Shown here: positions 32,436 through 47,798 of the stretch, one piece after another
Numbering within the stretch: position 1 is the stretch's first letter
How the letters are laid out: each line of letters starts with the position of its first letter
Assembly: GCA_963696395.1 (NCBI GenBank)
Contig: CAVOJZ010000002.1
Span: 213,060 to 277,059, forward strand
Direction of reading: 5' to 3'
Length of the DNA: 64,000 nucleotides
Source: an uncultured bacterium
GTDB taxonomy: Bacteria; Patescibacteriota; Minisyncoccia; UBA6257; 2-01-FULL-56-20
Translations under genes and position numbers: made by a program
Notes under the pieces: model-generated
What the model was told of the DNA's origin: nothing
Databases searched by the model: none
What the model saw: the letters and a program-made list of their open reading frames with translations, nothing else

Positions 32436-33239
32436 ATGAACACACAACGAGTTTACGCGATATTCCTTCGTCAGTGGTACCTCATCCGCGGCAACGCCAC
32501 ACGCTTCGTCCAAATGTTCATCTGGATAACCGTCGATATCGTGATGTGGGGGTTCTTGAGCAAATATCTTGGCGGCATATCCGGATCGGGATTCAATTTC
32601 ATATCGGTGCTCCTCGGAGCAATCTTGCTCTGGGATTTCCTCATTCAGATTATGCAAGGCATCACCATGTCGTTTTTTGAAGATGTATGGTCGCGCAATT
32701 TTCTCAACATTTTCGCCTCGCCAATCAAGATATCTGAGTACGTGGCAGGGTTCACGCTGGCAAGCATCTTGCGAGGCATCATCGCATTAGTTGTCATGCT
32801 CGTTCTCGCCTCGGTAATTTTCGGATTTTCAGCATTCGTCTATGGAACCTCAATTACACTATTCCTCCTTATTCTTTTTCTCTCTGGCATCGCGCTTGGC
32901 ATCGTCGCTGTGAGTATCGTGCTGCGTCTGGGTCCGGCAGCGGAATGGTTTATCTGGCCGATTCCCGCCCTACTTTCGCCGTTTGTCGGGGTACTCTATC
33001 CCCTCACGGTCTTACCGACATGGATGCAATACATTGGTCACCTGCTTCCTCCGTCTTACGTCTTTGCAGGAGTACGCGCTATCGTGAGCGGCGGGACGTT
33101 CCCAATCGCGGAATTGCTTCTTGGCATTGTCTTGGCGCTCGTTTATATCGTCCTTGCGTATTTCTTACTCCTGTCCGTGTACAAGAAGGCTATCCGCAGC
33201 GGACTGATCGCTCGATACAGTGCCGAGACGGTGAATTGA
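32436..33239 (+). CDS. ABC-2 type transporter permease
   Basis: Six TM helices, directly downstream of the ATPase. Confidence 0.75.
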   Translation: MNTQRVYAIFLRQWYLIRGNATRFVQMFIWITVDIVMWGFLSKYLGGISGSGFNFISVLLGAILLWDFLIQIMQGITMSFFEDVWSRNFLNIFASPIKISEYVAGFTLASILRGIIALVVMLVLASVIFGFSAFVYGTSITLFLLILFLSGIALGIVAVSIVLRLGPAAEWFIWPIPALLSPFVGVLYPLTVLPTWMQYIGHLLPPSYVFAGVRAIVSGGTFPIAELLLGIVLALVYIVLAYFLLLSVYKKAIRSGLIARYSAETVN

Positions 33240-33279
33240 GTCCATTCGCCCACGATTACCACCAGGGACTTCCATGACA

Positions 33280-34623
33280 TCAGGAAATTACCAGCTGCAC
33301 TATTTTATCTCTCATGGTTAATTTGCTCTTGAAGCATCCCATCAGCTCGCGCTTTTCATTTAAGCTACCTTCCTTAAGGAGGTATTTTATGTAATTTCGG
33401 AGGTTGACGTCTTTCGCTTTCGCATCCACATTCTTGGGCTCTGGCATTCCCATGACGCTGCGCTGGAATTTTTGATGACGCTCAATTTCTGCCTCAAGCT
33501 TGTGCCTGACGCTGAGCTCGTTTAGATTGATTTGATCGATAAAGGCGGCGAGTTGCCCGATGAGGTTTTCTTCGCGGACGTATTGCGTCTTGCAGTGATG
33601 ATCCCTGCTCCGGCTGCATCCGTAATAGACGTATCGTGACGTCGTGCCGTCATCCAACTTCTTATACTTTTCCTCCGCCGTAATCCCCGATCCGCATTTG
33701 CCGCAGGTGATGAGTTTTGTAAAAGCGAATTCCCTAATTTCTGAGCGTACAATTTGGTCTCGTTTCACTCGTTCCTGCGCCTTCATGAAAAGATCTCGAT
33801 TGATGAGTGGCCTGTGCTTGCCGTCGTACCAATTCCCACTCTTTTTAGGATATTCAAAGCGCCCGTAATAAAAATGGTTATCGAGGAGAAGGTAGATATT
33901 CGCTAGGGAAAGATGATGGTTGCTTTTTGTCTTGAAATTGAGCTCGAACCGAAGCCAATGGTACAATTTTCGCCCCGTCCAATTTTCGTACGCCACCTTC
34001 TCGAACATTTGTTTGACGACCGGCGCTCGTTCTTTATCGATCGTTACCTGCCCCTTCCGGTCGCTACGGTTCTCATTCAGATAACCGGTCGGCGCAACGC
34101 CCGGCCACAATCCCATCTCCACACGAGTTCGCAGTCCCCTTTTTACGTTCACTGATTTATTGTCGTTCTCAAGCTTCGCCTGACTGCACAGAATCATCAG
34201 AAGAAATTTCTCGCTCGGCGAATTCGTGAATTTCTGTCCGAACGTTTTGATCTCGACCAATAATTTTTGATCCATGAGATCCACGAGCGATCCGAGATCA
34301 CCCGCGTTGCGCGAGAGGCGATCCGGTGCCCACGTGAGAATTCCGTTAAATCGCGCTGCTTTGAGATCGCTCACGATTTCGTTAAACACCGGGCGTTGCC
34401 CGGAGTCTTTTGCCGAGTGCGACTCGCGACGGATGTCGATAATTTCCAGCCCTTCACGCTCGGCGATCTGGAGCATCTCTTTGACTTGAGAATCGATCGA
34501 AAGCACCTGCTTTTCCTCGCTCTCGGTGCTCTTACGGGCATAGAGTACGTATCTGACCTTTATTGGGGCATGGACTGCCGTTTGGACCCCCGCCCCTGCC
34601 GGTTTTAATGGTTGGTTTACCAT
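33280..34623 (-). CDS. Large serine recombinase (resolvase N-domain, recombinase domain, zinc ribbon)
   Basis: VRYVLYARKSTESEEKQ catalytic-Ser region, ...WAPDRLSRN, C-terminal CGKCGSG...YYGC zinc ribbon and coiled coil; 447 aa. Confidence 0.85.
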   Translation of the reverse strand: MVNQPLKPAGAGVQTAVHAPIKVRYVLYARKSTESEEKQVLSIDSQVKEMLQIAEREGLEIIDIRRESHSAKDSGQRPVFNEIVSDLKAARFNGILTWAPDRLSRNAGDLGSLVDLMDQKLLVEIKTFGQKFTNSPSEKFLLMILCSQAKLENDNKSVNVKRGLRTRVEMGLWPGVAPTGYLNENRSDRKGQVTIDKERAPVVKQMFEKVAYENWTGRKLYHWLRFELNFKTKSNHHLSLANIYLLLDNHFYYGRFEYPKKSGNWYDGKHRPLINRDLFMKAQERVKRDQIVRSEIREFAFTKLITCGKCGSGITAEEKYKKLDDGTTSRYVYYGCSRSRDHHCKTQYVREENLIGQLAAFIDQINLNELSVRHKLEAEIERHQKFQRSVMGMPEPKNVDAKAKDVNLRNYIKYLLKEGSLNEKRELMGCFKSKLTMRDKIVQLVIS

Positions 34624-34666
34624 ACCTCAATGGATGACACACTGGGTACTGAAGTCCAGACCTCTC

Positions 34667-34697
34667 AATAACCTATCAAAACACCCCTCTAGGGGGG
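34667..34697 (-). terminator. Rho-independent terminator of the membrane-protein gene
   Basis: ACACCCCTC-TAGG-GGGGTGT with T-run on the minus strand. Confidence 0.55.
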
Positions 34698-34724
34698 TGT
34701 TTATCCGCCGGCGGCCAGAACCCG

Positions 34725-35381
34725 CTATTGCTGAAGTGCTGGCCATACCCAAAGCGTATTCCAAAGGCCAGGCAATACCTGAAGTTCAAGCGTTGCTTTG
34801 TCAGCATTCCAATTTACTTTAGCCGCGACGTCACCATCAAGTTCCGATCGGTACGCCAGCGTATCGGTTGTATTCCCATAACGATCCATGCCAGGAAGAT
34901 AAGCTGAGACAATCACTTGCTCAATGTTGTTCACGCCGCTTGTGTAAAGCCCCTGATACAGATCCGTCGATTTCATCTTGATGCCGTCCAACGTGAGTCC
35001 GGAGGTGAGGTTTTGGCTGGCGTTGAAATCGACTGCAATATCCCACAGACCGTCAGTGCTTGTCGATGCGCTAAGATTTCTGAGATACGGTTCGCCGTCG
35101 GCATTATTTCCACTAAGCACTCCGTTAACGGTCTGCGCTATCATCTCCTGACTGGTTAGATGTTCCTGCGGCGCAGCAGTTACCGGAGTAGGCACATTCT
35201 GTGCTGGAGTGACGGCAATTCCGATCATAAACAGAATAAACCCGCCAAGGCCGAAGACCAGGATGATTTTCCTGCGCGTTTTTTCCTTAAACCAGCCCTT
35301 CTGTAATGGCTCTGGCTTGATGAGCGCACCCGCCATAAAAAGTATCGAGAAAAAGCCAAGCGTTCCCAATAATGCTCCCAT
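34725..35381 (-). CDS. Hypothetical membrane protein
   Basis: Two N-terminal TM helices then a soluble domain. Confidence 0.45.
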   Translation of the reverse strand: MGALLGTLGFFSILFMAGALIKPEPLQKGWFKEKTRRKIILVFGLGGFILFMIGIAVTPAQNVPTPVTAAPQEHLTSQEMIAQTVNGVLSGNNADGEPYLRNLSASTSTDGLWDIAVDFNASQNLTSGLTLDGIKMKSTDLYQGLYTSGVNNIEQVIVSAYLPGMDRYGNTTDTLAYRSELDGDVAAKVNWNADKATLELQVLPGLWNTLWVWPALQQ

Positions 35382-35483
35382 TAATTTGTCTGTTTTCTTT
35401 TTTCGACCTTTCGAGACAATGGATGACGCAGGGCTCTAAGGAAGTCCAGACCCTGCCAAACCAGTTCGATTTTTCATTCAGCA

Positions 35484-35502
35484 TATCATAATATCCATAA
35501 TT
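35484..35502. promoter_or_regulatory. Perfect palindrome ATATCCATAATTTGGATAT, candidate operator in the divergent intergenic region upstream of the XRE gene
   Basis: 7-bp arms with 5-bp AT spacer, 35 nt upstream of the XRE start. Confidence 0.45.
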
Positions 35503-35536
35503 TGGATATTCACTTTCCGGATATAGCGTTGAAGGT

Positions 35537-35758
35537 ATGCCGAAATCGATCCAGACCAAGGAATACGCTATCTTCGTGGAACGCCTCCGAAAAGCACGCA
35601 TCGAAGCAGGCTTCACCCAAGTGGAAGTCGCCAAAAAGATAGGGCGGCCACAGTCCCATATCTCCAATATCGAATCAGGTCAACAGCGCGTCGACGTCAT
35701 CGAACTCAAGCGTTTTGCTGCGCTCTACGGGAAGAAGATCAGCTATTTCATAAAGTAG
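35537..35758 (+). CDS. XRE-family HTH transcriptional regulator (Cro/CI-like)
   Basis: FTQVEVAKKIGRPQSHISNIESGQQ HTH_3 signature; 73 aa. Confidence 0.8.
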   Translation: MPKSIQTKEYAIFVERLRKARIEAGFTQVEVAKKIGRPQSHISNIESGQQRVDVIELKRFAALYGKKISYFIK

Positions 35759-35777
35759 CGGCCGCCCGTAGTCATCC

Positions 35778-36317
35778 TCACGATCCCTTGAAAAACTTCT
35801 CCCGTTTTTCCTGCCTCCTTAACTCTTCATCTTCCCGTATCCATTGCAGAAATAGCTCGGGGTTCGTTTTAATGAGATTCTCGGTAAACTTGCCGTCTTT
35901 CAATAGACCAAACCGCTCCAACGAAGCGATGATGTTATCAGTCTGTTCTTCGCTCAGGTGATACGTCGGCACGCTCTCTTTCTTCCTTCGTTCCCATTCT
36001 TCACGGCCTTCCGGAGGGAGCGCTTCGACAGGAACTTTCGGCAGATAGCGCACCTCATTGTTGCTGAGAAAATACTTGATGGCACCGACATTGCCTTTTT
36101 TAGCCTCCCTCACAAGCGCTAACTCCGTCATTTCAATCCATTGCTTCCTTCCGTCGATCAAGGCAAGATCAACCGCCGTCTTGAAGTCAGGATCATTCTT
36201 TATCCATCGATAGACGGTGGCACGGCCGATACCAACCTTGTGACATGCCGCACTGATAGAAGGATTCTCGGACAACAACTGTATGAATTTCGATCGTTCG
36301 TCACTGTGTCTCGCCAT
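35778..36317 (-). CDS. terS: Phage terminase small subunit (P27-like, N-terminal HTH)
   Basis: ISAACHKVGIGRATVYRWIKNDPDF HTH and GNVGAIKYFLSNN motif typical of TerS. Confidence 0.7.
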   Translation of the reverse strand: MARHSDERSKFIQLLSENPSISAACHKVGIGRATVYRWIKNDPDFKTAVDLALIDGRKQWIEMTELALVREAKKGNVGAIKYFLSNNEVRYLPKVPVEALPPEGREEWERRKKESVPTYHLSEEQTDNIIASLERFGLLKDGKFTENLIKTNPELFLQWIREDEELRRQEKREKFFKGS

Positions 36318-37647
36318 GGATCTTGCGGCGCTTTTTGCCGGTTTTCAGTTCCCAGCGACGCATGATGATTTCGGCATACACAGAACTCTTCTCCATAACG
36401 TAGCAGCGTCGACCTAAGGCAATGGAACTCATTAATGTAGATCCACTGCCCCCGAACGGTTCCAGCACCAGCTGGCCTCGTTTCGTGAGGATCTTGATAT
36501 ACGGGATCAGGATTTCGAGCGGCTTGACCCCGAAGACCACAGCTTGCCCTGACGATTTCTCATCGGCGGCGTTATAGGTTATATGATCCGTCGGACAATA
36601 TTTCTTGCCCTTACCGTACGATTCCCAATGCGGAGATCCCGAAGTCGCAAAGAGCGCTGCTTCGTATTCGTTCTGCACGAGCTGATCCTCATCCTCAAGG
36701 TTGAGGCCGGAAAACTCTTCACTCGTTCCAACGACCGCGATATCATGCTTCGAGAACAGCTTGTACCTGCCAGCATAGCCCTGATTTCTATTAGGAAGAT
36801 GCCAAATTACCAGATTGCGCACCCTCCAAAACTTCTCAATCGTATCCCACACATTCCTCAAATTCTTCCAATTTTCATAGCAGAAAATTGAAAAATCTTT
36901 TGCTTGGACTTTGCTGACGTTGGTCATCCAAAGATCAGTGAAGTTTTCTGGCAGCTCTTCGGTCTCGAGATAGCGGCGATTCCGCTTCATTCCAAAGCCA
37001 ACCGTCGCGCCATCCTTCCGCTTGCCGCCGCCCAAGTATTGAAGTTGGTACGGCGGATCGGTCATGACCATATCGGCCTTCTCGCCGTCCATGAGCGTGA
37101 GCACGTCGGTCTCTACCGTACTGTCCCCCACCATTAATTTTGAGCCGTCGAGATCGTAGACATCGCCTTTCTTGGCTTCAATCGATTCGATGTTTAATTT
37201 ATCAAGCTCCTTCTCGAGGTCGAACATTTCGGGCGTCGGGTCTTCCTCGAAAATCGTATCGAGCTCTTCGCTGTCGAAGCCGATGTCAGCAAGGAGATCC
37301 TCACTGAACTCCGCTAAGGCATCCCAGTCAAAAATTCCGGTATTTTTATTTAAGCGAATAATGAGCTCGGCCTCTTTATCTGCTGGCACGTTCACGCGAA
37401 CAATCGGAACGGTATCAACCTGCATTTCTGCCAAAGCAACGGCGCGGAAATTTCCGCCCACGATCACGCCCTCACGCCCGGGGGCGCTGTTTACAATAAG
37501 CGGGTCTACTACGCCATACCGCTTGATCGACTCTTTAAGCTGCTCCGTTGCCTCTTTCGTCCAGATGCGTGGATTCCGCTCTGGGTGCCGCAATGAGGAC
37601 AAGGCAACGTACTCGATCCTCAGTTGCGGTTTATTGTTTTCACTCAT
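36301..37647 (-). CDS. ParB-like nuclease domain fused to an N6A/N4C DNA methyltransferase (orphan, phage-type)
   Basis: N-terminal ParB/Sulfiredoxin block, DPPY motif IV (VMTDPPYQ), C-terminal FGGSGST motif I; start at MSENNKPQLRIEYV. Confidence 0.75.
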   Translation of the reverse strand: MSENNKPQLRIEYVALSSLRHPERNPRIWTKEATEQLKESIKRYGVVDPLIVNSAPGREGVIVGGNFRAVALAEMQVDTVPIVRVNVPADKEAELIIRLNKNTGIFDWDALAEFSEDLLADIGFDSEELDTIFEEDPTPEMFDLEKELDKLNIESIEAKKGDVYDLDGSKLMVGDSTVETDVLTLMDGEKADMVMTDPPYQLQYLGGGKRKDGATVGFGMKRNRRYLETEELPENFTDLWMTNVSKVQAKDFSIFCYENWKNLRNVWDTIEKFWRVRNLVIWHLPNRNQGYAGRYKLFSKHDIAVVGTSEEFSGLNLEDEDQLVQNEYEAALFATSGSPHWESYGKGKKYCPTDHITYNAADEKSSGQAVVFGVKPLEILIPYIKILTKRGQLVLEPFGGSGSTLMSSIALGRRCYVMEKSSVYAEIIMRRWELKTGKKRRKIHGETQ

Positions 37648-37991
37648 GGTGAAAATTATTAAGTTTCGGGGGCGTTTTCGACGATAACAAAAACGAGTCC
37701 GAGACAAATCTGAAACACCCCTCTTTTATGAAAGAAGTGTCTCGGACTTATCTCGGACTCGAGTCTCAGGGTTGGATACCTGAGGCTTACCGAACGGCGT
37801 GAGCCATGCAACGGACTTGGTGCTTGCCTTCAAGCACTGCTGGACAGACCAATCTCCACTGGTCTGCAACCGCCCGCTTAAATAACAAACAGCTAGGAGA
37901 TATTTCGATATTAGCAAATGGCTCCGGCGAGGGTCAAGGGATTGTGTGGATAACTTATGTATATTGTGTATTAAGCTACCCCTATTGGCTA

Positions 37992-38031
37992 TTGCAATTC
38001 CAAAAATATGAGGTATAATGGACCTCATATG
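37992..38031 (+). promoter_or_regulatory. Sigma70-like promoter TTGCAA-16-TATAAT with inverted repeat TGAGGT-ATAATGG-ACCTCA overlapping the -10, directly before the LexA-like start
   Basis: Seen in sequence; predicted TSS within 1-3 nt of the ATG at 38029 (near-leaderless). Confidence 0.45.
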
Positions 38032-38709
38032 ATAAACCGTCGCACCATCCTTACCCAGAAGCAAAAGGAAACGCTCGATTTTATTGATAAGTTCATCACT
38101 AAAACGGGGTCTGCGCCTACCATGAACGAGCTACGCACTGGCTTAGGGTTGAGTTCCCTGCGGAGCGTGTCTCAACGATTGGAGGCACTTGAGCGGAAAG
38201 GGTTCATAAAGCGAGATCGCTTTCGGCACAGGGGCATCAGCTTACTCCCCGAATATATCGACACCACTCCCTCTGGGACAATCCAAATACCGGTTATCGC
38301 TTCCGCGGGTGCCGATGCCATGCAGGTATACGCACAGGAGCAATATGACGAATACCTGACCATTGATAAGTCGATGATAAATCCCAAGAAAGAAATTGTT
38401 GCTATCCGGGCAATCGGATCGAGCATGGTGGATGCCAACATTCGGAGCGGCGATTACGTTCTGGTGGAAGTTGGAGGCAACGTTGAGAATTGCGACCGAG
38501 TTATAGCTATACTCGGCGACATGGCGGTAATCAAGAAAATTCAATTTACCGCGGATGCCGTCGTTCTTTATCCCGAAGCGAAAGGCGGATCGTATCAGCC
38601 GATTGTGATGCCGGACGACTCCAAGATCTTCGGCCGTGTTTTGCGAACCATCAGTATGAAGAATAATGATAACCAAGAAATCACGTACGACTATAAAATT
38701 TCCAACTAA
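38029..38709 (+). CDS. lexA: LexA-family repressor (wHTH plus S24 peptidase, Ser/Lys dyad)
   Basis: N-terminal LexA DNA-binding domain (LTQKQKETLDFIDKFITKTGSAPTMNEL), catalytic GSSM Ser and VIKK Lys; the track ORF starts at 38008. Confidence 0.75.
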   Translation: MINRRTILTQKQKETLDFIDKFITKTGSAPTMNELRTGLGLSSLRSVSQRLEALERKGFIKRDRFRHRGISLLPEYIDTTPSGTIQIPVIASAGADAMQVYAQEQYDEYLTIDKSMINPKKEIVAIRAIGSSMVDANIRSGDYVLVEVGGNVENCDRVIAILGDMAVIKKIQFTADAVVLYPEAKGGSYQPIVMPDDSKIFGRVLRTISMKNNDNQEITYDYKISN

Positions 38710-38737
38710 AGGTCGGCATATTGAATTTTTCAAATCA

Positions 38738-39088
38738 ATGCAAGCAGAGAAAAAAATGACGGTAAAGGAAGTTATCGCAGAAATGACTAACGACACCAAG
38801 GTAACCGTTCACTTTCCCAGTGAAATCGGCTTGGAGCTGGTCCAAGCGAACGAGTTGCGCCATTATGAACTGTTTCAATGGCTCGTCGCCTTGTTGGCAC
38901 CAATCGCGGTAGGATTTTGGACTGGTTATGCTGTTGAATCGGTGAAGTCGCAAGCACTTGTTTGGAGCGCACTGGTCTTCACGATCATCTCAATCATATT
39001 CTTCGGAATAGCCATGCACTACCGCAAAAAAATCTTTCACGGAAGCGTGGCGAAGAGTATCTTCCTGAAAGATTTCGATAGAAAGTAG
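38738..39088 (+). CDS. Hypothetical small membrane protein
   Basis: Two TM helices; start trimmed to avoid overlap with lexA. Confidence 0.35.
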   Translation: MQAEKKMTVKEVIAEMTNDTKVTVHFPSEIGLELVQANELRHYELFQWLVALLAPIAVGFWTGYAVESVKSQALVWSALVFTIISIIFFGIAMHYRKKIFHGSVAKSIFLKDFDRK

Positions 39089-39229
39089 AAAACCATCGAG
39101 GAGGTGCTTAAAAATTCCGGAAACCACCTGAGAGCCCGCGTTGTTCTTTCGGAGATTACGACAACGGCGCCGAGCTAATCCGGAGACACCTCCTCGATAG
39201 CAGCATAAATTAAGATTCAAAAAAATATC

Positions 39230-39412
39230 ATGGCTAAAAAAATTATTGTACACACTGGCGGAAAAGTTCCCCAGTCGGGCGAATATCGTCCTGCCGACAG
39301 TAAGTACGAGATAACCTTGGTAAAGGGTAAACGCGTGCCGCCGAATAATGAAGGCGTGCAACAGCATTTCACCTTAGTCCACAAGGCAAAACACGAAAAA
39401 CCGAAAAAATAA
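39230..39412 (+). CDS. YjzC-like small protein
   Basis: GEYRP...YEITLVKGKRVPP pattern resembles Bacillus YjzC; good SD and structured leader. Confidence 0.4.
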   Translation: MAKKIIVHTGGKVPQSGEYRPADSKYEITLVKGKRVPPNNEGVQQHFTLVHKAKHEKPKK

Positions 39413-39419
39413 AACACCT

Positions 39420-40130
39420 ATGCCATTTTGGAAAGAAGCACCAGCGCCGGAGGAAGTTTTGGAAATGGAGCCTGAAGAACTTGCTCCGTTTATTTTGCGA
39501 TATCTGCAGAAACAACCTACCAATCAGATAAATCGATACAATTTTAGTTTATTAAACGATCGGGAGCTTATTGATCGTCTTGGCTATGCAAATGGTCAAG
39601 CTTATGGCAATTGCTTAATGGAGGCATGGATGTATCTCGAACGGGAAGGGTTCGTCGCTCCCCAGCCAGGACAGCAAGGTGAATGGGCGTTCGTGACACG
39701 CCAAGGGAAAAAAGTTGTTGAAGCCCAGGACTTTGATGCTTACAGAAAAGGACATCTGCTCTCTTCTGAAAGCATGGACCCCATTCTCATCCAAAAAATA
39801 AAACCTCTTTTTCTGCGGGGTGATTATGATACGGCCGTATTCCAAGCATTCAAGGAAGTCGAAGTCCGCGTAAGAAAGAAAGCTAACTTGGCAAATACCG
39901 ATATAGGCGTCTCACTTATGCGAAAAGCGTTTAAATCTCCGGATGGAATATTAGTAGATAAGAAAGCCGACCCGGGCGAACAAGTGGCACGCATGGAACT
40001 TTTTGCAGGCGCGATCGGAGTTTATAAAAACCCATCAAGTCATCGTGAAGTTTTCTTTGCTGATCCAAAGGAAGCCGCGGACATCATACATATCGCCAAC
40101 CAGCTCTTGCGAATCGTGGAGTCGATCTAA
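39420..40130 (+). CDS. Conserved hypothetical protein, TIGR02391-like C-terminal domain
   Basis: C-terminal ...GVYKNPSSHREVF... resembles the RNPxAH motif of the family. Confidence 0.35.
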   Translation: MPFWKEAPAPEEVLEMEPEELAPFILRYLQKQPTNQINRYNFSLLNDRELIDRLGYANGQAYGNCLMEAWMYLEREGFVAPQPGQQGEWAFVTRQGKKVVEAQDFDAYRKGHLLSSESMDPILIQKIKPLFLRGDYDTAVFQAFKEVEVRVRKKANLANTDIGVSLMRKAFKSPDGILVDKKADPGEQVARMELFAGAIGVYKNPSSHREVFFADPKEAADIIHIANQLLRIVESI

Positions 40131-40164
40131 ATCGTTATCCGACGCAAAATAAGCATTATGCCCC

Positions 40165-40557
40165 TTATTGTTTCGGATAATCGCCAAGCTCGCTCACGGC
40201 CGCCGATTTTCCCTCCTGACACTTTCTCGAAAGAAGTTCGAATTTAATCATCTTTATTTCCGTCTCCCCTGTCACTTGCTCGCCGTAGTATTGGCGAAAG
40301 TGAAGCACCATGTCCGCCGAGCCAAGATAACGTTCATGGCCCTCATCAAAATCAGCATCACTCACATCCTTCAATGCTTTCATTCGCACACTAAGAACTT
40401 TGGCCGTTGCAAACTCTTCGCCGGTCTTCTTGTTAACAAAAAGTAGTTCATCGCCCGGAACAATGTTCTTATCATCAAACATACGCCAAGTCACGGTTTT
40501 GGTGCCGCCGAGGATAAGCGGAATGAGATTCTCTTCAAATTTTAGCGTCTTTTGCAT
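40165..40557 (-). CDS. ASCH (PUA-like) domain protein
   Basis: ILGGTKTVTWR matches the GxKxxExR-type ASCH motif; start at MQKTLKFEE. Confidence 0.5.
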   Translation of the reverse strand: MQKTLKFEENLIPLILGGTKTVTWRMFDDKNIVPGDELLFVNKKTGEEFATAKVLSVRMKALKDVSDADFDEGHERYLGSADMVLHFRQYYGEQVTGETEIKMIKFELLSRKCQEGKSAAVSELGDYPKQ

Positions 40558-40559
40558 GG

Positions 40560-41054
40560 TTAAATTTTTGCGATAAGATTTTCCTCGATGGGAAACGAAT
40601 GTCTCCACAAGAGGTCTTTTGCCTTCGCATATTTTTCGATATCCTCATCGATGGAAAATCCTAAATAGCGTCCTTGGTCACCATAATTCATTTTGATGGC
40701 GATTTTATTATCGACAAGCCAAAAATCTTGGAGGGTGATATCAAGCGTTTGGAAAAGATCGTCTCCGATAATTCTTATTTTATCGCCGCGTTTTGCGCTC
40801 TCTTTGTGAATCTCGATCTCAAACTTCGTATAGTCATTCATCGGTCGGACAACTCTTCGTACGCGCTGCGTAACCACGCCCCGTTTATGGAGGGTATCCA
40901 GATCCTCCCACCATCCTTTACCCGCCTGCGTGATATCCAGTTCGTGATTCTGCCACTGGGTAAAAGCATCCTTATCGGTTGCGCTAAAATCCTGCAGATA
41001 TTCGAATCTGAATATGGAGTGCTGCGCCGCGCTGAGATAGTCCATGAGTTCCAT
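40560..41054 (-). CDS. Hypothetical protein
   Basis: 164-aa ORF, 3-nt gap to the ASCH gene. Confidence 0.4.
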   Translation of the reverse strand: MELMDYLSAAQHSIFRFEYLQDFSATDKDAFTQWQNHELDITQAGKGWWEDLDTLHKRGVVTQRVRRVVRPMNDYTKFEIEIHKESAKRGDKIRIIGDDLFQTLDITLQDFWLVDNKIAIKMNYGDQGRYLGFSIDEDIEKYAKAKDLLWRHSFPIEENLIAKI

Positions 41055-41058
41055 GTGT

Positions 41059-41646
41059 TTATCGACTAACTTCCACTAGTAGTTCCGGAAATTCATCCGT
41101 ATTCATATCTTCGCCAGTATAGTGCCCCCGTCCCTTAAGCTCGATAACCGTGCCGCCGAGAGCACTCTTAAATATCTCCAAACTCCTCTTCCCGTTTTGC
41201 TCCTCGTTGTCAGCAGTGAACATGACAATTTTGTTTACGCGCTGCTTGATCGTCTCGTCGATTGGATAGTCATAGAATTTCTTTTTCACCTCACTGCTTG
41301 TACCGATCTTCCACGGCGCAATCAAAATAAGCTTATCGATTTTTCTTTTTGAATCGCCCAGCCAACGAACCAGAAATGCGCATCCACAACTATGCCCGAT
41401 GAGCGTCGTTTGTTCATTTATCTCCTGCTTTTCAAACTCAGCTTTCCATTTCTCATAATCCGGTGCCCACGACTCAGGCATGAGCGGTGTTGTCGTGGGT
41501 GTGCCATCGGTGATTAACTGTTCCCGAACCCACGGCATCCAATGCTTATTTTCAGGATACTCTTTACTTTCTTCGGGGCTGGAAGAGCAACCGTGAATAA
41601 TGACTACGTTTTTCATTTGGTTAGTTTGGCACCTCTCCATTTTCAA
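41059..41646 (-). CDS. Alpha/beta serine hydrolase, RBBP9/YdeN-like
   Basis: VVIIHG..., nucleophile GHSCG, ...GHY catalytic His region. Confidence 0.55.
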   Translation of the reverse strand: MKMERCQTNQMKNVVIIHGCSSSPEESKEYPENKHWMPWVREQLITDGTPTTTPLMPESWAPDYEKWKAEFEKQEINEQTTLIGHSCGCAFLVRWLGDSKRKIDKLILIAPWKIGTSSEVKKKFYDYPIDETIKQRVNKIVMFTADNEEQNGKRSLEIFKSALGGTVIELKGRGHYTGEDMNTDEFPELLVEVSR

Positions 41647-42091
41647 GATAGGCCGTTCTATGCGCTTTGCGAGCCTCGACGCACTTCGGCAAACGCTTAC
41701 TAAGATTGACGGCCAAGAGCTTTACAGCTTCTTCGATGGACACGAGCTTGTATTCCGTCAGCTCTTCTGTCTGCAATTTGATCTTGCTTATCTCCTCCGC
41801 CGTGAGCGTCCCTCCGTCAAAGACCATACTCACGTGGTCATGGCCGCCACGCGTCACTTTGACGTAATCAACGCACAGCAATTCAAGTGGTTTTTTATCG
41901 AGACCGATTTCTTCTTTCACTTCCCGCATATACGCTTCCACAGGCGATTCCTCGGCGTCAATCGTGCCGCCGGGGATGTTCCAGCCCTCTTTGTAGTTGG
42001 GTTTCACAATAAGGACGCTGCCTTCGTCGTTAAAAAATAGCCCGCCGGAGCTGATTGTTTTTCGAGGTAGCATTTCCCATTCGACGTACAT
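41621..42091 (-). CDS. NUDIX hydrolase
   Basis: Nudix box GGTIDAEESPVEAYMREVKEEIGL; start trimmed to avoid a divergent overlap with the next gene. Confidence 0.7.
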   Translation of the reverse strand: MYVEWEMLPRKTISSGGLFFNDEGSVLIVKPNYKEGWNIPGGTIDAEESPVEAYMREVKEEIGLDKKPLELLCVDYVKVTRGGHDHVSMVFDGGTLTAEEISKIKLQTEELTEYKLVSIEEAVKLLAVNLSKRLPKCVEARKAHRTAYLENGEVPN

Positions 42092-42121
42092 GCAAGCATT
42101 ATAACCTGATATAATTGCCGT

Positions 42122-42889
42122 ATGAAGCTCCTGACTCTCAATACCTGGGGCGGCAAAGTGCATGGTCCCCTTCTTAAGCTCATCGAACGGCTAAATGGTG
42201 AAATCGATGTCTTTTGCTTTCAGGAGGTATTCAGCACAAATGCCGAGATGGAAATCTCTGATGGGGCGCGGGCGAGCTTGCATGAGGACATCTCAAAAAT
42301 TCTCACGTCCTACTGCGCCTTTCATAGTCCAAAATCGAAGGGCTATGATTATAGCGGCTTCATCGGCAAAGACATCAATTTCGGCAACGCTATCTTTATC
42401 AAAGAGAGCATCCCTATCCTTTCGTATGACGAGATGTTCAACATCGTTTCCGATGCCGGACACGATTGGCGAAAAAATGCAATCGCCAAAGCCCAGTTCA
42501 TCACGATCCAGGCGGGCGACGCTCCGCTCGCCATCTGCAATTTCCATGGCATGTGGATCAAGGATACCCACAAGAAAGATACGCCGGAGCGGATAGAGCA
42601 GTCGCATCACATTCGTAAGATTTTGGACTCGTTCCCCGGCGAGAAAATCATCTGCGGCGATTTCAACCTCCTTCCTGATGGCGAGAGCATCAAGATTCTT
42701 GAGCACGGTATGCGGAATCTCATCAAAGAGCACGGCATCACATCGACGCGCAGCTCGCTCTATAAAACAAGCCCGATCCGGTATGCTGACTACGTCCTCG
42801 TGTCACGCGGCATCAAGGTCAACGATTTCACCGTACTGCCGGATGAGGTTTCGGATCATTTGGCGGTAACATTAGATTTTGCAATATGA
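42122..42889 (+). CDS. Endonuclease/exonuclease/phosphatase (EEP) family protein
   Basis: LTLNTWGG, FCFQEV, CGDFNL and SDHLAV motifs. Confidence 0.7.
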   Translation: MKLLTLNTWGGKVHGPLLKLIERLNGEIDVFCFQEVFSTNAEMEISDGARASLHEDISKILTSYCAFHSPKSKGYDYSGFIGKDINFGNAIFIKESIPILSYDEMFNIVSDAGHDWRKNAIAKAQFITIQAGDAPLAICNFHGMWIKDTHKKDTPERIEQSHHIRKILDSFPGEKIICGDFNLLPDGESIKILEHGMRNLIKEHGITSTRSSLYKTSPIRYADYVLVSRGIKVNDFTVLPDEVSDHLAVTLDFAI

Positions 42890-43494
42890 TCAAAGCTGTA
42901 ATTTTTGATTTTGGCGGCGTAATCCAGTTAAACGACGGCGAGAACATATTAAGGCAGATCGCCCGGATGCTCGACGTGCCGTTCGAGAAATTTCAACAGG
43001 CCTATTACGAACACAATCACCTTTCGAACGTGACCAACGTGAGATGGGAGGATATGATCATTGAGGTCGTGCGAGTATTTGACGATAGCGCAACGACAAA
43101 AGATCGTATCAGAAAATTCATACAAACTTACAGTGCGGGAAATAGGATCAACACCGATCTCCTGTCTCTGTTTTCAGTGCTGCGCAACCAAGGATTGAAA
43201 GTCGCCATTTTGAGCAATGCGACCTCGGAGCTGCGAACTCGATTGGAAAAAGAAGGTGTAGCAAGGCTTGTGGACGAGATTGTGGTCTCTGGTGAAATCG
43301 GCTACCAGAAGCCGCACCGCGAAGCATTCGAGGTTGCGTTCAAAAGGCTAGGCGTCCGCCCCGAGGAAGTCGTCTTTGTGGACGATTCGGTGAAAAGTTT
43401 GGAAAAAGCAGTGGAGATTGGTTACGCGCCGATTCTTTTTAAGGACAATGAGCAGCTCAAAGCCGCCCTCAAAAAGCTAGGGTTAAAAATCTAA
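42886..43494 (+). CDS. HAD-superfamily hydrolase, subfamily IA
   Basis: AVIFDFGGV motif I; FVDDS motif; 4-nt overlap with the EEP gene. Confidence 0.7.
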   Translation: MIKAVIFDFGGVIQLNDGENILRQIARMLDVPFEKFQQAYYEHNHLSNVTNVRWEDMIIEVVRVFDDSATTKDRIRKFIQTYSAGNRINTDLLSLFSVLRNQGLKVAILSNATSELRTRLEKEGVARLVDEIVVSGEIGYQKPHREAFEVAFKRLGVRPEEVVFVDDSVKSLEKAVEIGYAPILFKDNEQLKAALKKLGLKI

Positions 43495-44127
43495 ATGGAT
43501 CTTAAATCAACCTACAACCGAATCGCCGAAGATTGGCACAAAGATCACACGAAAGATTCGTGGTGGACCGAGGCGACCGATACATTCATATCGTTGCTCA
43601 AGCCAGGGTCCCCCGTCTTGGATGTCGGATGCGGAAGTGGCGTGAAAGCAAAATATCTTATCGAGCACGGCCTCAATGTCGTTGGCATTGATCTCTCGGA
43701 AAAGATGATCGACATTGCCAAGCGCGAGGTATCAGGCGGTGAATTCCGCGTGATGGACATGTACGAGGTCTCTGGACTCTCACGCGATTTCGATGGCATT
43801 TTCGTTCAAGCGGCATTGCTTCATATCCCGAAGATAAAGGCTCAAAGTGTGCTTTCCGGACTTGCCGCTAAAATGAAGCCGGGTGGATATTTATATGTCG
43901 GCGTAAAAGAAAAATGGCCGGATAAAAAAGACGAAGAAATCCTCCGCGAAAACGATTACGGCTACGAATATGAGCGGTTCTTCAGCTACTTCACGCTCGA
44001 TGAGATCAAGCAATATTTCCTGAACCTCAAGCTGACCATTTCGTATGAAAACGTGACGACGTCGGGAAAAACAAATTGGATACAGGTGATAGGACAAAGC
44101 CACGCCCAAGATCAATCACGGCAGTAA
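43495..44127 (+). CDS. Class I SAM-dependent methyltransferase
   Basis: VLDVGCGSG motif I, starts 1 nt after the HAD stop. Confidence 0.7.
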   Translation: MDLKSTYNRIAEDWHKDHTKDSWWTEATDTFISLLKPGSPVLDVGCGSGVKAKYLIEHGLNVVGIDLSEKMIDIAKREVSGGEFRVMDMYEVSGLSRDFDGIFVQAALLHIPKIKAQSVLSGLAAKMKPGGYLYVGVKEKWPDKKDEEILRENDYGYEYERFFSYFTLDEIKQYFLNLKLTISYENVTTSGKTNWIQVIGQSHAQDQSRQ

Positions 44128-45126
44128 GGGTTTTATATTTTCTGCATCGAGCGTATACGCACGCACAAACGAATCGTCGACATGCGCATAGAGCATGCCG
44201 CTCCCTTTGCCCCGCTCGACAAACTGGCTGGCAAATGTAATCGTCTTCGCTTCGCTGTCTTGTATAAAGGGCTCCGGCGAAACCCAATCAATCTTTCCGT
44301 CCTCGTAATCATAGATAAAGAGGCCGACGGAAAACATTCCGTATTTTATCTCGTTTCCGACCCTTCGATTCGCCTCGCGACCGTTCATGACGCCCAGCAG
44401 CTTTCCTTCGCCCACATCAATAAAGCTCTTCGGTAAGAGCGGCCCCGGCGACGCATGGCCGCCGATCCACGGAATCTTGGCTTCCTTCGGATGAAAAACC
44501 GTCTCGCCGAACTCCCACCTCTTTCCCATGTCTTCCGCTATGGCAACGCGCACCGTCGAGTACGTAAAGTCGCTTTCTGTCTTTGAGGATTCAACGAGGT
44601 TATATCTGAACCCCTGCCCATTCATCGGCGCAATGGAAAGTTCCTTCGCCGCTTGGTGGATTTCGCCCATCAAAACCGGCATGGTCATTTCCAAGGAATC
44701 AAGATCCTTGCCAACCGCATGTCCAAGATGAACCAGACCATGGTCCTCCGGCTTAGGATCGTGGAACGGCATCGTGAAATAGAGATGGAGCAATCCGGTC
44801 TTTTCATCGATCCAGATGTCCGGATCTTCGAGGCCGAGAAAATCCAGACCCTCGCCGCTCAACTGGTGTATAACCTCGGCTTGGTTTTTAATAACGAGTT
44901 GCTCGCCGATGGAAAAATGTTCCAGCGAATCGCCGTGCACTTTATGCAATACACTTTTATCGACGTAGCCGGAAACCGTGATGTCGCCCTCGCGGCTGCG
45001 GATGCAGCGAATGACGCCATCCCGATAATTCGAGCGAGGATCGAGCGAGATTGCCATCACGTGCGCAAATTTCCCTCCGGCCGTAACTGCTTTTTTTTGG
45101 TGCTCGACAATCTGGCGCTTGTTCAT
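44116..45126 (-). CDS. Predicted beta-propeller glycosidase/phosphorylase-like protein (GH130/GH43-like)
   Basis: Repeated Gly/Asp blade-like segments; weak family-level impression only. Confidence 0.3.
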   Translation of the reverse strand: MNKRQIVEHQKKAVTAGGKFAHVMAISLDPRSNYRDGVIRCIRSREGDITVSGYVDKSVLHKVHGDSLEHFSIGEQLVIKNQAEVIHQLSGEGLDFLGLEDPDIWIDEKTGLLHLYFTMPFHDPKPEDHGLVHLGHAVGKDLDSLEMTMPVLMGEIHQAAKELSIAPMNGQGFRYNLVESSKTESDFTYSTVRVAIAEDMGKRWEFGETVFHPKEAKIPWIGGHASPGPLLPKSFIDVGEGKLLGVMNGREANRRVGNEIKYGMFSVGLFIYDYEDGKIDWVSPEPFIQDSEAKTITFASQFVERGKGSGMLYAHVDDSFVRAYTLDAENIKPLLP

Positions 45127-45148
45127 GTAGTTCCATTATAATGGATAC

Positions 45149-45412
45149 ATGGCAACTATCCATAAGAAAATCTGGCCGGAGAACTTTGACCTCGTCGCGT
45201 CGGGCAAAAAGCGGTTTGAGTTGCGGCTTGCTGATTTCGATGTCAACGAAGGCGACGTGCTTGTGCTTGAAGAATGGGACCCAAAGACGAAAGCGTATAC
45301 GGGCAGAACGATGGAAAAGAAGGTGGACTATATTTTGAAATTTCCACTCGATAAATTTGGGCAGAAAGAGGAGATTTTAGAAAAGGGGCTGTACGTGATC
45401 CAGATCACTTAA
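45149..45412 (+). CDS. DUF3850 (ASCH-like, PUA fold) domain protein
   Basis: KIWPENFDLVASGKKRFELRLADFDVNEGDVLVLEEWD...YTGR fits the DUF3850 pattern. Confidence 0.5.
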   Translation: MATIHKKIWPENFDLVASGKKRFELRLADFDVNEGDVLVLEEWDPKTKAYTGRTMEKKVDYILKFPLDKFGQKEEILEKGLYVIQIT

Positions 45413-45418
45413 AGCATC

Positions 45419-45652
45419 ATGAACGAAAATAATATCGAAGGTAACCGAGCGCGACAAAGCGAATCTCTAAAGGAACGGCTTGAAGAGGTGCGCCGGATGA
45501 TTTTAGATACTCAGGCGGAAATGGCACAGGTGAGAGAAGATGCCGTCGAGAAACCTGATCGGGCAAGAGAGCTTGTCCCCCTCAAACGGGCACTCGATAC
45601 GCTTGAAGCCGAAAAATCGGAACTGGAAAATCACCCGAACGGGAGCAATTAG
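45419..45652 (+). CDS. Small coiled-coil protein
   Basis: 77 aa, heptad-charged helix. Confidence 0.35.
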   Translation: MNENNIEGNRARQSESLKERLEEVRRMILDTQAEMAQVREDAVEKPDRARELVPLKRALDTLEAEKSELENHPNGSN

Positions 45653-46098
45653 TTCTTCAGCTCCATACGGAAATGATCGCGCAGATTTTTCGTAGTGCGG
45701 AATCCTGCCTTCTGGTACGCGCTGATCGCTCTAAGATTGCTCGTCCTCACGAGTAGGAATATCTTCTTTATCTTTAACCGCTTCGCTTTCACGAGCAGCT
45801 GTTTGATGGCTCGGGTCCCAAGCCCCTTGCCCCGAAACTGTCGTTCGCCAATCACAATCTGCGTTTCGTACCAATCGTTCCTCCGCCTCCGCAACGCGAG
45901 ATGACCTATCGTACGATTTCCGGCGACGATCATATAGTGCAAATCATTTTTGCTGTTGATGAGCAAGCTGAAATAGCGAGGAATATCTTTCTTTGCGGCC
46001 ATATGTCCGCTCGTTAATTGCGCAAGCTCCTTATCCCGCCACCAGCGGGAGAAATAGATGATATCCGTCATTACTGGTCCCCGTAAGGAAATCTTCAT
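45649..46098 (-). CDS. GNAT-family N-acetyltransferase
   Basis: RGKGLGTRAIKQLL acetyl-CoA binding motif A. Confidence 0.7.
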   Translation of the reverse strand: MKISLRGPVMTDIIYFSRWWRDKELAQLTSGHMAAKKDIPRYFSLLINSKNDLHYMIVAGNRTIGHLALRRRRNDWYETQIVIGERQFRGKGLGTRAIKQLLVKAKRLKIKKIFLLVRTSNLRAISAYQKAGFRTTKNLRDHFRMELKN

Positions 46099-46169
46099 CT
46101 CTTCAGTATAGTCGGAACAAAAAGAAAAAGGCGAGCCCGTAAAAGCGCTCGCCTCGTTGTTGATTGAAA

Positions 46170-46631
46170 CTACTGCATCGCCTTCCGCTTGGCTCGCCGT
46201 CGCTGCTTAGCGGTATTGACGTCCTCTCGGCCGCCGGAAGCGCTTTGGATAAATGCGTCGAGCTCCTCGCTGCCTCTTTGCTTTTGCCGCAAAGATTCTG
46301 CGAGTGCTTCTTTCGGAAACCCGAACGCTCGCCGGATGTGTTCCTGACTTTCGGGATCCATGTTGATCGAATCTTCCGAAGCAAGGTACTCCAACAGTTT
46401 TACCCTTGCCTTTTCCGGAAAATCCTTCACCGCAAGCGCGGTCGCTTCGTACGTTTCCTTGTCGACGGTTTCGCAAATCACCTTAGGCTTGCCAGAATCT
46501 TCGGAAACGCCCACTCGGTATTCAATCCCGTCGATCTCAACTTCCGCCGCTTCCCCGATGAACTGGTGCTGGATGTACATATGAGGAGCATAGTCCTCGT
46601 CACTGTTGTCGGTACCCCATGGTGTTGGCAT
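46170..46631 (-). CDS. Hypothetical protein
   Basis: 153-aa ORF, acidic. Confidence 0.4.
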   Translation of the reverse strand: MPTPWGTDNSDEDYAPHMYIQHQFIGEAAEVEIDGIEYRVGVSEDSGKPKVICETVDKETYEATALAVKDFPEKARVKLLEYLASEDSINMDPESQEHIRRAFGFPKEALAESLRQKQRGSEELDAFIQSASGGREDVNTAKQRRRAKRKAMQ

Positions 46632-46647
46632 ACGACCTCCCTTCTTT

Positions 46648-47229
46648 TCAAGCTCGAACCGTCATGAGAACCCAACCGACGCCTGTGATAGAAAGCGCCG
46701 CAAGTTCTCCAAGGCAATACGTGATGAATGTGAGTCGCCAACCGAGAATCGGCTGACGAACCATGGCGATCTGCCAGCCAACGAGCGTTGATGTCGTAAC
46801 GAACGTGAGTAGCGGCACGGGATTCGCTCCCGCGTCCCACAACTCCCGCACGATCGGCATACTCGTTAGACTTCCCGGAATCAGATGTGCCGCAGCCAAT
46901 GCGCCGAAGACGCCTTGCTTGCCAGCGAGGTACGCGAGCAGTGCTGGGCGGTAGAGGTTGATGATTGCTGTCGCCTCACCCATCGCGAGAAACATCACGG
47001 TGAGGAGCGGTGCATACGCGGCAATCATCTTCGCCGAGAGGATCGCCCCATCGTTTGCGAGTTTTGACCCGCCGATGCGAAAAGCACATCCGGCAAGTAC
47101 GCCGGTCACGATGATGAGCGGCAGGAGATCAACCATAAACTTTCGGTCGATCTTGATCGCGCCCATCCGATACAAAGCCATGGCAAGGAGGCCAAGGCCG
47201 GTGCACATCAGTATGATATTGAATTTCAC
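46648..47229 (-). CDS. Hypothetical polytopic membrane protein
   Basis: Five to six TM helices. Confidence 0.45.
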   Translation of the reverse strand: MKFNIILMCTGLGLLAMALYRMGAIKIDRKFMVDLLPLIIVTGVLAGCAFRIGGSKLANDGAILSAKMIAAYAPLLTVMFLAMGEATAIINLYRPALLAYLAGKQGVFGALAAAHLIPGSLTSMPIVRELWDAGANPVPLLTFVTTSTLVGWQIAMVRQPILGWRLTFITYCLGELAALSITGVGWVLMTVRA

Positions 47230-47330
47230 AACGCATCTCCTTGTGGCTTCCTGCCACGATTGAATTGACGTTAACTGCTGGCTATGTTATAACATACGCA
47301 GAACCGGTTTGTCAATTTTTCGGAGGGTTT

Positions 47331-47798
47331 ATGCGAAAGCACTTGCTCGATGTGGTAGCCATTGTGGTTGTCGTATGGGGCTGTTTCTACTTCTACCACG
47401 AGATGAATGACCACGTCCGCGTCGTCTACAACGCAGGCAGCGTGAAAGAAATCTGCATGGTTGATCCGGTAAAGGCAGACGTTTCCGAAGTCCATGTGGT
47501 GAGGATCGGATCAGATATGGGAAGCCAGTGGAAGGAATTGGAATCGCCGAGCGAAAGCGGGACGACATACCAGCTCCCTGTGAACGCTCCCTTGAAAGCA
47601 ATTTCCGTACAGCGCACACAAGGCCACCTACTTATCAGTCATGCAGTCACGAAAGGCGGCGTGAACATTCCCCTTTGCGAGCCAGGCATCGAAGTCCCAG
47701 ATGGCGTTTACTCGTTTTCCACGGATTCGGACGATAACTCCATCGGGAGCGTCGCGCTCAAGGTGGATGACGGCAAGCTGTATCTTGGCGTCAGCTAG
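47331..47798 (+). CDS. Hypothetical membrane-anchored protein
   Basis: Start at MRKHLLDVVAIVVVVWG. Confidence 0.4.
   Translation: MRKHLLDVVAIVVVVWGCFYFYHEMNDHVRVVYNAGSVKEICMVDPVKADVSEVHVVRIGSDMGSQWKELESPSESGTTYQLPVNAPLKAISVQRTQGHLLISHAVTKGGVNIPLCEPGIEVPDGVYSFSTDSDDNSIGSVALKVDDGKLYLGVS

Follow-up and report, generated by a model that had tools for sequence, protein, structure and literature searches.

In a 64,000-nt stretch of the 0.91-Mb contig CAVOJZ010000002.1 from an uncultured Patescibacteriota bacterium (hereafter the window), we interpret the segment at ~33.24-37.94 kb as a reduced, probably non-autonomous integrative element of ~4.7 kb that lies between an ABC-2 permease gene and the promoter block of lexA, a reading to which we assign a probability of about 0.55. 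The segment encodes a large serine recombinase (LSR), a predicted membrane protein, an XRE-family regulator, a protein resembling the small terminase subunit (TerS) and a DNA methyltransferase with a ParB domain (ParB-methylase), whose coordinates are listed with those of the other features in Table 1. The recombinase, methylase and TerS-like genes belong to an arrangement that recurs across Patescibacteria, and the closest related module keeps a large terminase subunit (TerL) that the window copy has lost. An initial annotation of the window had proposed a single mobile island at 33280-46100, either resembling phage-inducible chromosomal islands (PICIs) or representing a degraded prophage; its observations proved largely correct, whereas its interpretation was borne out only in part.

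Window genes and the LSR-terminase family of Patescibacteria

The LSR carried all three of its Pfam domains above the cut-offs together with an intact catalytic motif (YARKST), in agreement with the recombinase call of the initial annotation. The curated NCBIfam models nearest to it were CcrB, XisF and CcrA, with scores far under every equivalog cut-off. The XRE regulator, the membrane protein and the ParB-methylase named earlier were likewise recovered through Pfam and PHROGs matches and hydrophobic N-terminal segments, with the methylase start corrected from 37707 to 37647, and the perfect 19-bp palindrome assigned to the XRE gene turned out to be a 21-bp near-palindrome with 8-bp arms, in which 18 of the 21 positions are symmetric. 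The 218-aa membrane protein had no match in Pfam, PHROGs or NCBIfam; a 47%-identical homologue was found in a related locus (L105; related loci are cited by such numbers), where its gene is also preceded by the LSR motif described below. A homologue of the XRE regulator with 82% identity was found in L131/L132. Exact-protein look-ups returned the source contig and one Logan contig with an identical arrangement. Neither capsid, portal and tail genes nor lysis genes were found in the window by Pfam, PHROGs and NCBIfam, the lone PHROG structural match being a Nudix-domain artefact, and tblastn with the TerL of the LSR-element family gave no TerL remnant, so that the virion-less, TerL-less character noted at the outset held.

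More than 537 relatives of the LSR with 53-85% identity were found in metagenomic and viral contigs, seven of them on IMG/VR contigs; 87 loci were examined, and ~95 related loci were compared in total. The loci share a backbone upstream of the LSR and co-oriented with it, in which a ParB-methylase is followed by TerS, TerL, 0-8 kb of variable cargo and the LSR itself. Clustering of the open reading frames (ORFs) of 88 LSR loci placed the ParB-methylase in 40 of them, a TerS-like helix-turn-helix (HTH) protein in 28 and a TerL of ~500 aa in 37. Among the 47 loci in which the sequence extends 5 kb or more upstream of the LSR, 34 carry the module. The ~500-aa protein was identified as a large terminase by PHROGs (phrog_38, 8e-75 and 1.6e-75), its Pfam Terminase_6N/6C matches being sub-threshold only, and was just 22-27% identical to any GenBank phage TerL. 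The cargo of the relatives included reverse transcriptases, type I and Dcm restriction-modification systems and a pair of bAvd and reverse transcriptase genes, and the nearest relatives of the window LSR (82-85% identical) had different neighbour genes.

No portal, capsid or tail family was found among the best 25 of the 114 PHROG families matched by 94 flanking protein families. The genes after TerL in L176 had no PHROG matches, so neither portal nor capsid was detected there, and recognisable host genes stand within ~12 kb in L175. Together with the divergence of TerL, these results argue against the complete loci being intact prophages. The label of degraded prophage was too simple for the window copy, given that dozens of loci share the backbone without virion genes: the LSR, TerS-like and ParB-methylase genes are indeed phage-derived, but they belong to a recurrent family rather than to a random dead prophage. 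A full-text literature search gave no paper combining serine recombinase, terminase and Patescibacteria, and no paper was found that describes the order ParB-methylase, TerS, TerL, cargo and LSR; this LSR-terminase family of Patescibacteria is widespread and apparently undescribed.

Within the family, we also observed two tandem TerL paralogues in L167 (3809-6938) and L168 (2405-5564), an additional TerS-like HTH gene 5' of the methylase in L091 (6255-6632; family F16, phrog_7344 8e-8) and, near the module of L131 (2671-3219), a gene for a putative ImmA/IrrE-like metalloprotease (family F29) recognised from its HEXXH motif.

The module closest to that of the window was found in L178, whose methylase is 73% identical and whose TerS is 60% identical over the N-terminal 102 residues. 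L178 retains both a TerL (35% identical to the family TerLs) and a 250-aa TerS (P0002), with which the 179-aa window protein aligns only over residues 1-143, its last 40 residues being unrelated. The window copy has the family features of an LSR motif and a co-oriented ParB-methylase followed by TerS, lacks TerL and the LOOT RNA described below, and carries a cassette of the XRE and membrane-protein genes in the position that TerL occupies in relatives. Because its closest relative keeps TerL and the longer TerS, the simplest reading is that the window element is a TerL-deleted derivative, in which a deletion or replacement would have run from within terS through terL and the cassette would have been installed. 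The occurrence of TerS without TerL, initially taken as a PICI signature, is not the signature of this family: its members as a rule encode a TerL, which in the window copy has been lost together with the C-terminal part of TerS.

The identity of the 179-aa protein as a TerS has modest support from three agreeing lines, none of which is strong alone. PHROG TerS families matched it at 1e-9 to 5e-5, covering only the N-terminal 75 residues of the HTH region; the Pfam model Sf6_terminase scored 19.6, below its cut-off of 27. In many of the related loci, including L178, its homologues have the ParB-methylase on one side and TerL on the other; NCBI gives homologues the name 'phBC6A51 family helix-turn-helix protein'. 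In an AlphaFold model of the protein (mean predicted local distance difference test score 78, >90 at residues 11-60), the top Foldseek matches were Sf6 TerS gp1 (3hef; probability 0.99, E 0.2) and phBC6A51 (2ao9; probability 0.8), which are weak matches (E 0.2-0.6, template modelling score 0.34-0.46). A PDB sequence search with the TerS profile gave nothing significant. In the window itself, the gene has no terL beside it.

We considered whether the TerL-less layout could be a functional design, namely a PICI-like satellite that is induced by a helper phage or the SOS response and excised by its LSR, and whose TerS redirects the TerL and capsids of the helper, with the altered TerS C-terminus as an adaptation to that helper. 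All ORFs of the window copy are intact, including the integrase, the TerS-like protein and the regulators, virion genes are absent, and repressor and operon stand head-to-head. TerL-less variants also recur in at least four other loci (L123, L145, L146 and L109), where TerS is without the C-terminal motif of TerL-linked TerS. The intact reading frames and these other loci lend the design some probability at the expense of our own reading. However, the TerL-less loci are scattered on the LSR tree, so that we rejected them as one lineage, and the retention of TerL in L178 indicates that the loss in the window is recent. No primase, helicase or replication-protein domain was found in the ORFs at 33.28-46.1 kb (Pfam, PHROGs, NCBIfam), and no Xis- or AlpA-like excision factor was recognised in the window, whose regulators are XRE and LexA, whereas excision functions and own replication are encoded in all known satellites reviewed in PMC10803314. 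An excisionase-like family (F42) occurs in just three relatives. With attachment (att) sites not found and LexA behaving as a chromosomal orthologue (see below), we consider a functional TerS-only satellite unlikely.

Directly 5' of the LSR start, most of the related loci scanned carried a bipartite promoter-like motif that reads GGTCTGGACTCC-N11-13-TGCGTCATCC on the coding strand; between it and the ATG lie 8-12 nt or a conserved leader of greater length. The window LSR has this family feature (core GGTCTGGAC..GCGTCATCC), which occurs in two copies in the window where 0 are expected by chance (background of 6 matches in 2.46 Mb). The copies flank the membrane-protein gene, and GAAAGGTCGAA, which follows the second, is a leader element that in one subfamily precedes the LSR. 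The motif is unlike the lexA-type promoter (TTGACA/TATAAT) and, on our subjective reading, bears more likeness to the -35 GGAC and -10 CGTC pair of promoters of the extracytoplasmic function type.

To our knowledge, neither this upstream motif nor an adjacent LOOT RNA has been described for LSR elements. LOOT was found in 44 of the 95 sequences scanned. In nearly all of these it lies no more than a few hundred nt from the LSR, on the same strand when immediately 3' of the gene and on the opposite strand when immediately 5' of it, and a motif copy precedes a LOOT RNA in L100 and L148. Its position suggests that LOOT may be an element-encoded RNA functionally tied to the recombinase; it was known only as a metagenome-derived RNA (Rfam RF03000; PMC7779021). 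The LOOT hairpins showed compensatory changes on inspection. In the window, no significant LOOT match was obtained even with filters off (best E 0.25-0.5). We rejected a weak candidate at 37657-37788 (E 0.49) as well as one at 31439-31531 (E 0.25), which is located within a group I intron.

Element borders, the lexA locus and the downstream region

The left border at ~33.24-33.28 kb is sound because synteny breaks at the permease stop codon and tetranucleotide usage shifts from 32 kb. In five relatives with a permease 70-91% identical to that of the window, synteny ended exactly at this stop codon, and nothing from window 33.24-64 kb was matched in the 10 kb downstream of the permease. The nearest homologues of the ABC-2 permease were in Patescibacteria metagenome-assembled genomes (MAGs) labelled Saccharibacteria, Paceibacterota or Parcubacteria. 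The LSR gene lies 40 bp from the last syntenic host gene, i.e. at the element end, and the DNA 3' of its stop codon varies across loci with no conservation. Tetranucleotide usage was homogeneous over 1-32 kb (r 0.87-0.95); beyond 32 kb it deviated, with r 0.71-0.85 up to the window end.

The initial annotation had named insertion polymorphism, direct repeats at 33.24-33.28 kb and compositional deviation as checks of its island. The segment proved to be absent from the same place in the five nearest relatives, although none offered a clean empty site; no repeat of at least 11 bp was shared with the right side; and the composition deviated as anticipated from 32 kb, but the deviation runs to 64 kb, beyond the proposed right border. 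The repeat search was uninformative because LSRs make no long repeats, and long direct terminal repeats are not expected of LSR elements.

The right end of the element depends on how lexA is read. The LexA protein scored 122.9 bits against TIGR00498 (NCBIfam equivalog, cut-off 110.95), has the Ala-Gly site plus the Ser and Lys residues, and forms with its 236 homologues, many of them named LexA, a smooth gradient of 69% to 42% identity across Patescibacteria. It had been described as an island repressor of the LexA-type S24 class with an operator at its own -10 element; a palindrome does enclose the TATAAT of a good sigma-70-type promoter, but the protein looks like the lineage's own LexA and not like a repressor specific to the island. 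This palindrome (38006-38030, ATATGAGGT-N7-ACCTCATAT) is unique in the window, where 0.01 are expected by chance, and is not conserved at other lexA loci. SOS control of the leftward operon is plausible but stays an inference. The ATG at 38029 implies a near-leaderless lexA mRNA, and the lexA genes of six lineages have an extended -10 element just 6-10 nt before the ATG, from which near-leaderless mRNAs are likewise implied.

Six lineages share a conserved block that covers ~90 bp 5' of lexA, with similarity beginning sharply at window position 37943. In the window, L169, L172, L174, L175 and L176, TGTGGATAA/TTGTGTAT boxes resembling DnaA boxes (TGTGNAWAA) occur 55-95 nt upstream of lexA. In L169, lexA follows a ribosomal-protein operon (rpsI) and a ParB-methylase lies 8 kb away. 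In four of the six lexA neighbourhoods (the window, L172, L175 and L176), lexA stands head-to-head with a methylase-TerS module, with the full layout through to the LSR in L175 and with TerL present in L176. The methylases beside orthologous lexA genes were only 22-35% identical to that of the window, and a LexA-like gene was found within 10 kb in just 3 of the ~87 LSR loci. For the modules or LSR fragments adjoining lexA in L172, L174, L175 and L176, methylase identity to the window was 22-27%. From this comparison, we lean towards lexA being a chromosomal gene whose upstream region would be where these elements preferentially insert or persist, over its being element-borne. With lexA as a chromosomal anchor, the right end falls at ~37.9 kb and the element measures ~4.7 kb.

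Two further observations concern these loci. In L174, a 69-aa ORF head-to-head with lexA (7132-7341) is an LSR N-terminus fragment, 48% identical to the window LSR over 48 residues, and is followed by a Dcm/HaeII/Vsr restriction-modification system; this may be the remnant of an LSR element that occupied the equivalent place beside lexA. In the lexA-linked element of L175 (1780-3183 and 8892-11092), a Paceibacterota MAG, cargo of bAvd and reverse transcriptase genes resembling a diversity-generating retroelement (DGR) lies between TerS and LSR, and a SAVED and SMODS pair of the cyclic-oligonucleotide-based anti-phage signalling system (CBASS) type follows lexA.

The repeated head-to-head position could instead mark a fixed chromosomal operon, divergent from lexA and linked to the SOS response, in which phage genes have been domesticated. 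Such an operon would be analogous to Bacillus subtilis lexA and yneA-yneB, the latter encoding a membrane division inhibitor and a resolvase-like protein; the window operon also includes a membrane protein, and the LSR catalytic domain weakly matches the YneB resolvase-like model (1.9e-10). However, modules next to orthologous lexA genes share so little identity that they seem to have been replaced and not inherited, and the scarcity of LexA-like genes near LSRs likewise speaks against a fixed linkage. With its Recombinase and Zn-ribbon domains, the LSR has the complete architecture of an integrase, and the cargo is highly variable (restriction-modification, reverse transcriptase/DGR, CBASS) in differing contexts. 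We regard a domesticated SOS operon as quite improbable.

To the right of lexA, the TIGR02391, ASCH, DUF3850, Nudix, EEP, HAD and S-adenosylmethionine (SAM)-methyltransferase genes reported initially were all confirmed by domain matches. None of the genes at 38.7-64 kb co-occurred with the LSR or the module in ~95 related loci, so the PUA-like, Nudix and EEP genes, proposed as island cargo, do not accompany the module and their assignment as such is unfounded. PADLOC found no complete defence system among 43 proteins at 33-64 kb, returning methyltransferase and HTH models and a weak PD-Lambda-3_B match for the Ymh protein. The genes at 46100-64000 are small, of mixed orientation and mostly unclassifiable, with atypical tetranucleotide usage and a low-GC patch at 50-54 kb; the classifiable exceptions were Peptidase_S51, FkbM methyltransferase, LprI, GH75-like, OmdA and alpha/beta hydrolase genes. 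Judged by gene content, the stretch at 38.7-64 kb looks like a variable chromosomal region rather than the cargo of a single element.

A larger island or decayed prophage would extend from the LSR to 46.1 kb or beyond, maybe past 64 kb, with lexA, the hydrolase and the PUA-like genes as its cargo. It would account for the finding that nothing right of 33.24 kb adjoins the permease in relatives, for the tetranucleotide correlation with the left half of only 0.71-0.85 up to 64 kb, and for the variable or defence genes that follow lexA in relatives (CBASS in L175, Schlafen/AlbA_2 in L172). This reading is opposed by the lack of co-occurrence of any 38.7-64 kb gene with the LSR or module, by the mixed gene orientation, and by the conservation of the lexA promoter block next to a ribosomal operon in L169; terminal repeats, a second recombinase, and structural or replication genes were not found either. 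The right border at 46.1 kb lacks support, 33280-46100 is not one demonstrable unit, and we consider an island of this size quite unlikely.

Several points weigh against our reading of a ~4.7-kb element ending before lexA. No direct or inverted repeats of at least 11 bp linked 33200-33300 with 37650-64000, no clean empty site was present among the permease-bearing genome contigs scanned, and no circular junction was found, so the window copy can be called no more than putatively mobile. The right end at ~37.9 kb is inferred only from the start of the lexA-locus similarity, and LexA-like or ImmA-like regulators stand beside the module in L103, L128 and L131, so lexA could be element-borne and the element could extend to the right. 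The PHROG census was viewed for the top 25 of 114 families, and structural proteins of Patescibacterial phages may escape PHROGs. Finally, in contrast to known satellites, the host belongs to the Patescibacteria, and no helper phage is known.

Table 1. Features of the window and LOOT RNA loci of related sequences (strand given as none where the feature has no strand)
Feature	Position	Strand	Basis and remarks
Large serine recombinase (LSR), 447 aa	33280-34623	-	Pfam Resolvase + Recombinase + Zn_ribbon_recom; phrog_95 integrase 1e-59
LSR motif copy 1, GGTCTGGACTTC-N12-GTCATCCATTG (coding strand)	34628-34662	-	Ends 8 nt before LSR ATG
G+C-rich hairpin, terminator-like	34684-34697	none	Between membrane-protein gene and LSR motif copy 1
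Predicted membrane protein, 218 aa, cargo	34725-35381	-	Hydrophobic N-terminal segments
LSR motif copy 2, then GAAAGGTCGAA	35417-35452	-	Upstream of membrane-protein gene
Near-palindrome AATATCCA-TAATT-TGGATATT	35490-35510	none	~27 nt 5' of XRE start; candidate XRE operator
XRE-family HTH regulator, 73 aa	35537-35758	+	HTH_3 4e-13; PHROG repressor families; convergent with terS
TerS-like HTH protein, 179 aa	35778-36317	-	PHROG TerS families; C-terminal ~100 aa of closest relatives absent
ParB_N + N6_N4 DNA methyltransferase, 448 aa	36301-37647	-	Pfam; phrog_498 1e-73; DPPY and FGGSGST motifs
Hairpin, 25-nt arms, terminator-like	37694-37761	-	Inside ~260-nt leader of methylase operon
Sigma-70-like promoter TTGACC-18-TAATAT, leftward operon	37908-37937	-	Consensus match only
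Conserved box cluster TGTGGATAAC..TGTATATTGTGTAT, DnaA-box-like	37943-37975	none	Upstream of lexA, six lineages
lexA promoter TTGCAA-16-TATAAT + palindrome	37992-38030	+	Palindrome 38006-38030 encloses -10
LexA, 226 aa from second ATG	38029-38709	+	Pfam LexA_DNA_bind + S24; TIGR00498
Accessory stretch	38666-46098	none	140-aa ORF first, 336-aa unknown included; Pfam/NCBIfam domains
TIGR02391 (Ymh) protein	39420-40130		Domain match
ASCH protein	40165-40608		Domain match
DUF6879	40560-41054		Domain match; absent from initial annotation
Ser_hydrolase	41059-41646		Domain match; absent from initial annotation
Nudix, EEP, HAD, SAM-methyltransferase genes	41621-44127		Domain matches
DUF3850	45149-45412		Domain match
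GNAT	45649-46098		Domain match; absent from initial annotation
LOOT RNA loci	L091 11380-11501; L101 11349-11468; L130 11365-11492; L139 11417-11547; L175 4794-4928

An additional ORF at 37726-38064(-) was judged spurious, as it overlaps the lexA promoter and has no homologues; it is unlike the small Zn-ribbon ORFs at the equivalent position in L103 and L128. On the left side of the element, we found a tRNA-Asn(GUU)-like gene (window 31277-31556) whose anticodon loop is interrupted by a ~205-nt group I intron (Rfam Intron_gpI full-length, 22.5 bits, E 0.0014, under the gathering score). The split gene was missed by ARAGORN; its intron-less homologue in L004, the closest relative, is tRNA-Asn(gtt) at 5221-5293. 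L004 carries ~3.9 kb of extra sequence (5300-9190) between the tRNA-Asn and ABC ATPase genes, where the window has 28 bp (31556-31584), which points to a second variable spot beside tRNA-Asn. In L005, a Parcubacteria MAG, a same-family LSR (3143-4492; 64% identical, upstream motif present) was found without the methylase-TerS module, 4.7 kb from the orthologous ABC transporter pair and on its opposite side.

Proposed mechanism and comparison with known systems

On the reading of a reduced element, the LSR would integrate and excise the element and would be driven by its own conserved non-canonical promoter-like motif. The ParB-methylase may mark the element DNA, either for protection from restriction or for control of pac cleavage; in phage P1, Dam methylation controls pac cleavage. 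In complete family members, TerS and TerL would cut the element DNA and feed it into helper-phage capsids, while the window copy would be unable to package alone and would at best need the TerL of a helper. Since it stands head-to-head with the lexA promoter, the leftward operon may come under SOS control. Going further, the family could be an unrecognised class of minimal Patescibacteria satellites that bring their own TerS and TerL, ParB-methylase and LSR and need a helper for capsids only, with the window copy as a decayed member and LOOT as a partner of the recombinase (regulator or recombination cofactor); we offer this broader proposal as a speculative one with rather low odds.

The mobile elements and phage parasites of Patescibacteria (candidate phyla radiation) are almost unknown. 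Should the family prove to be such as these loci suggest, it would be a widespread vehicle of defence and methylation genes in tiny-genome episymbionts, the LOOT RNA would gain a genomic home and a testable partner, and a new LSR clade with many natural variants would become available. The window copy is of value chiefly as a naturally occurring TerL deletion and as one case of the repeated association of these modules with lexA.

Among known systems, PICIs, including the Staphylococcus aureus pathogenicity islands, and other satellites (capsid-forming PICIs, or cf-PICIs; PICI-like elements, or PLEs; and phage-inducible chromosomal minimalist islands, or PICMIs) are likewise small integrated elements that encode a recombinase but lack virion genes. 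Further resemblances are the head-to-head arrangement of repressor and operon, a putative small terminase of phage type and, in the relatives of the window element, a cargo with many defence genes (restriction-modification, reverse transcriptases, CBASS). cf-PICIs carry TerL, as complete members of the LSR-terminase family do, and PLEs use a large serine recombinase. The window element differs from the satellites in having no primase, replication protein, origin module or identified excision factor, no capsid-remodelling genes and no att repeats, and in that its recombinase gene is distal in the operon instead of adjoining the repressor; PICMIs carry no terS (PMC10803314). Since no replication module, recognisable excision factor or att duplication was found in it, the window element is not a PICI, although it is PICI-like in logic.

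Two other groups of systems resemble the family in part. In Streptococcus phage Javan488, the packaging operon opens with the same order of methylase, small protein and TerL, and the methylase is ~30% identical over its full length; TerL is followed by portal-like genes there and by portal and capsid genes in such phages, whereas cargo and the LSR follow in the family, and the window copy differs from this packaging head of temperate Caudoviricetes in the absence of TerL. The three-domain LSR architecture is shared with other LSR elements (SCCmec Ccr, the XisF element and LSR prophages), from which the LSR-terminase family is set apart by its own upstream motif and by the LOOT RNA that accompanies it in nearly half of the sequences scanned.

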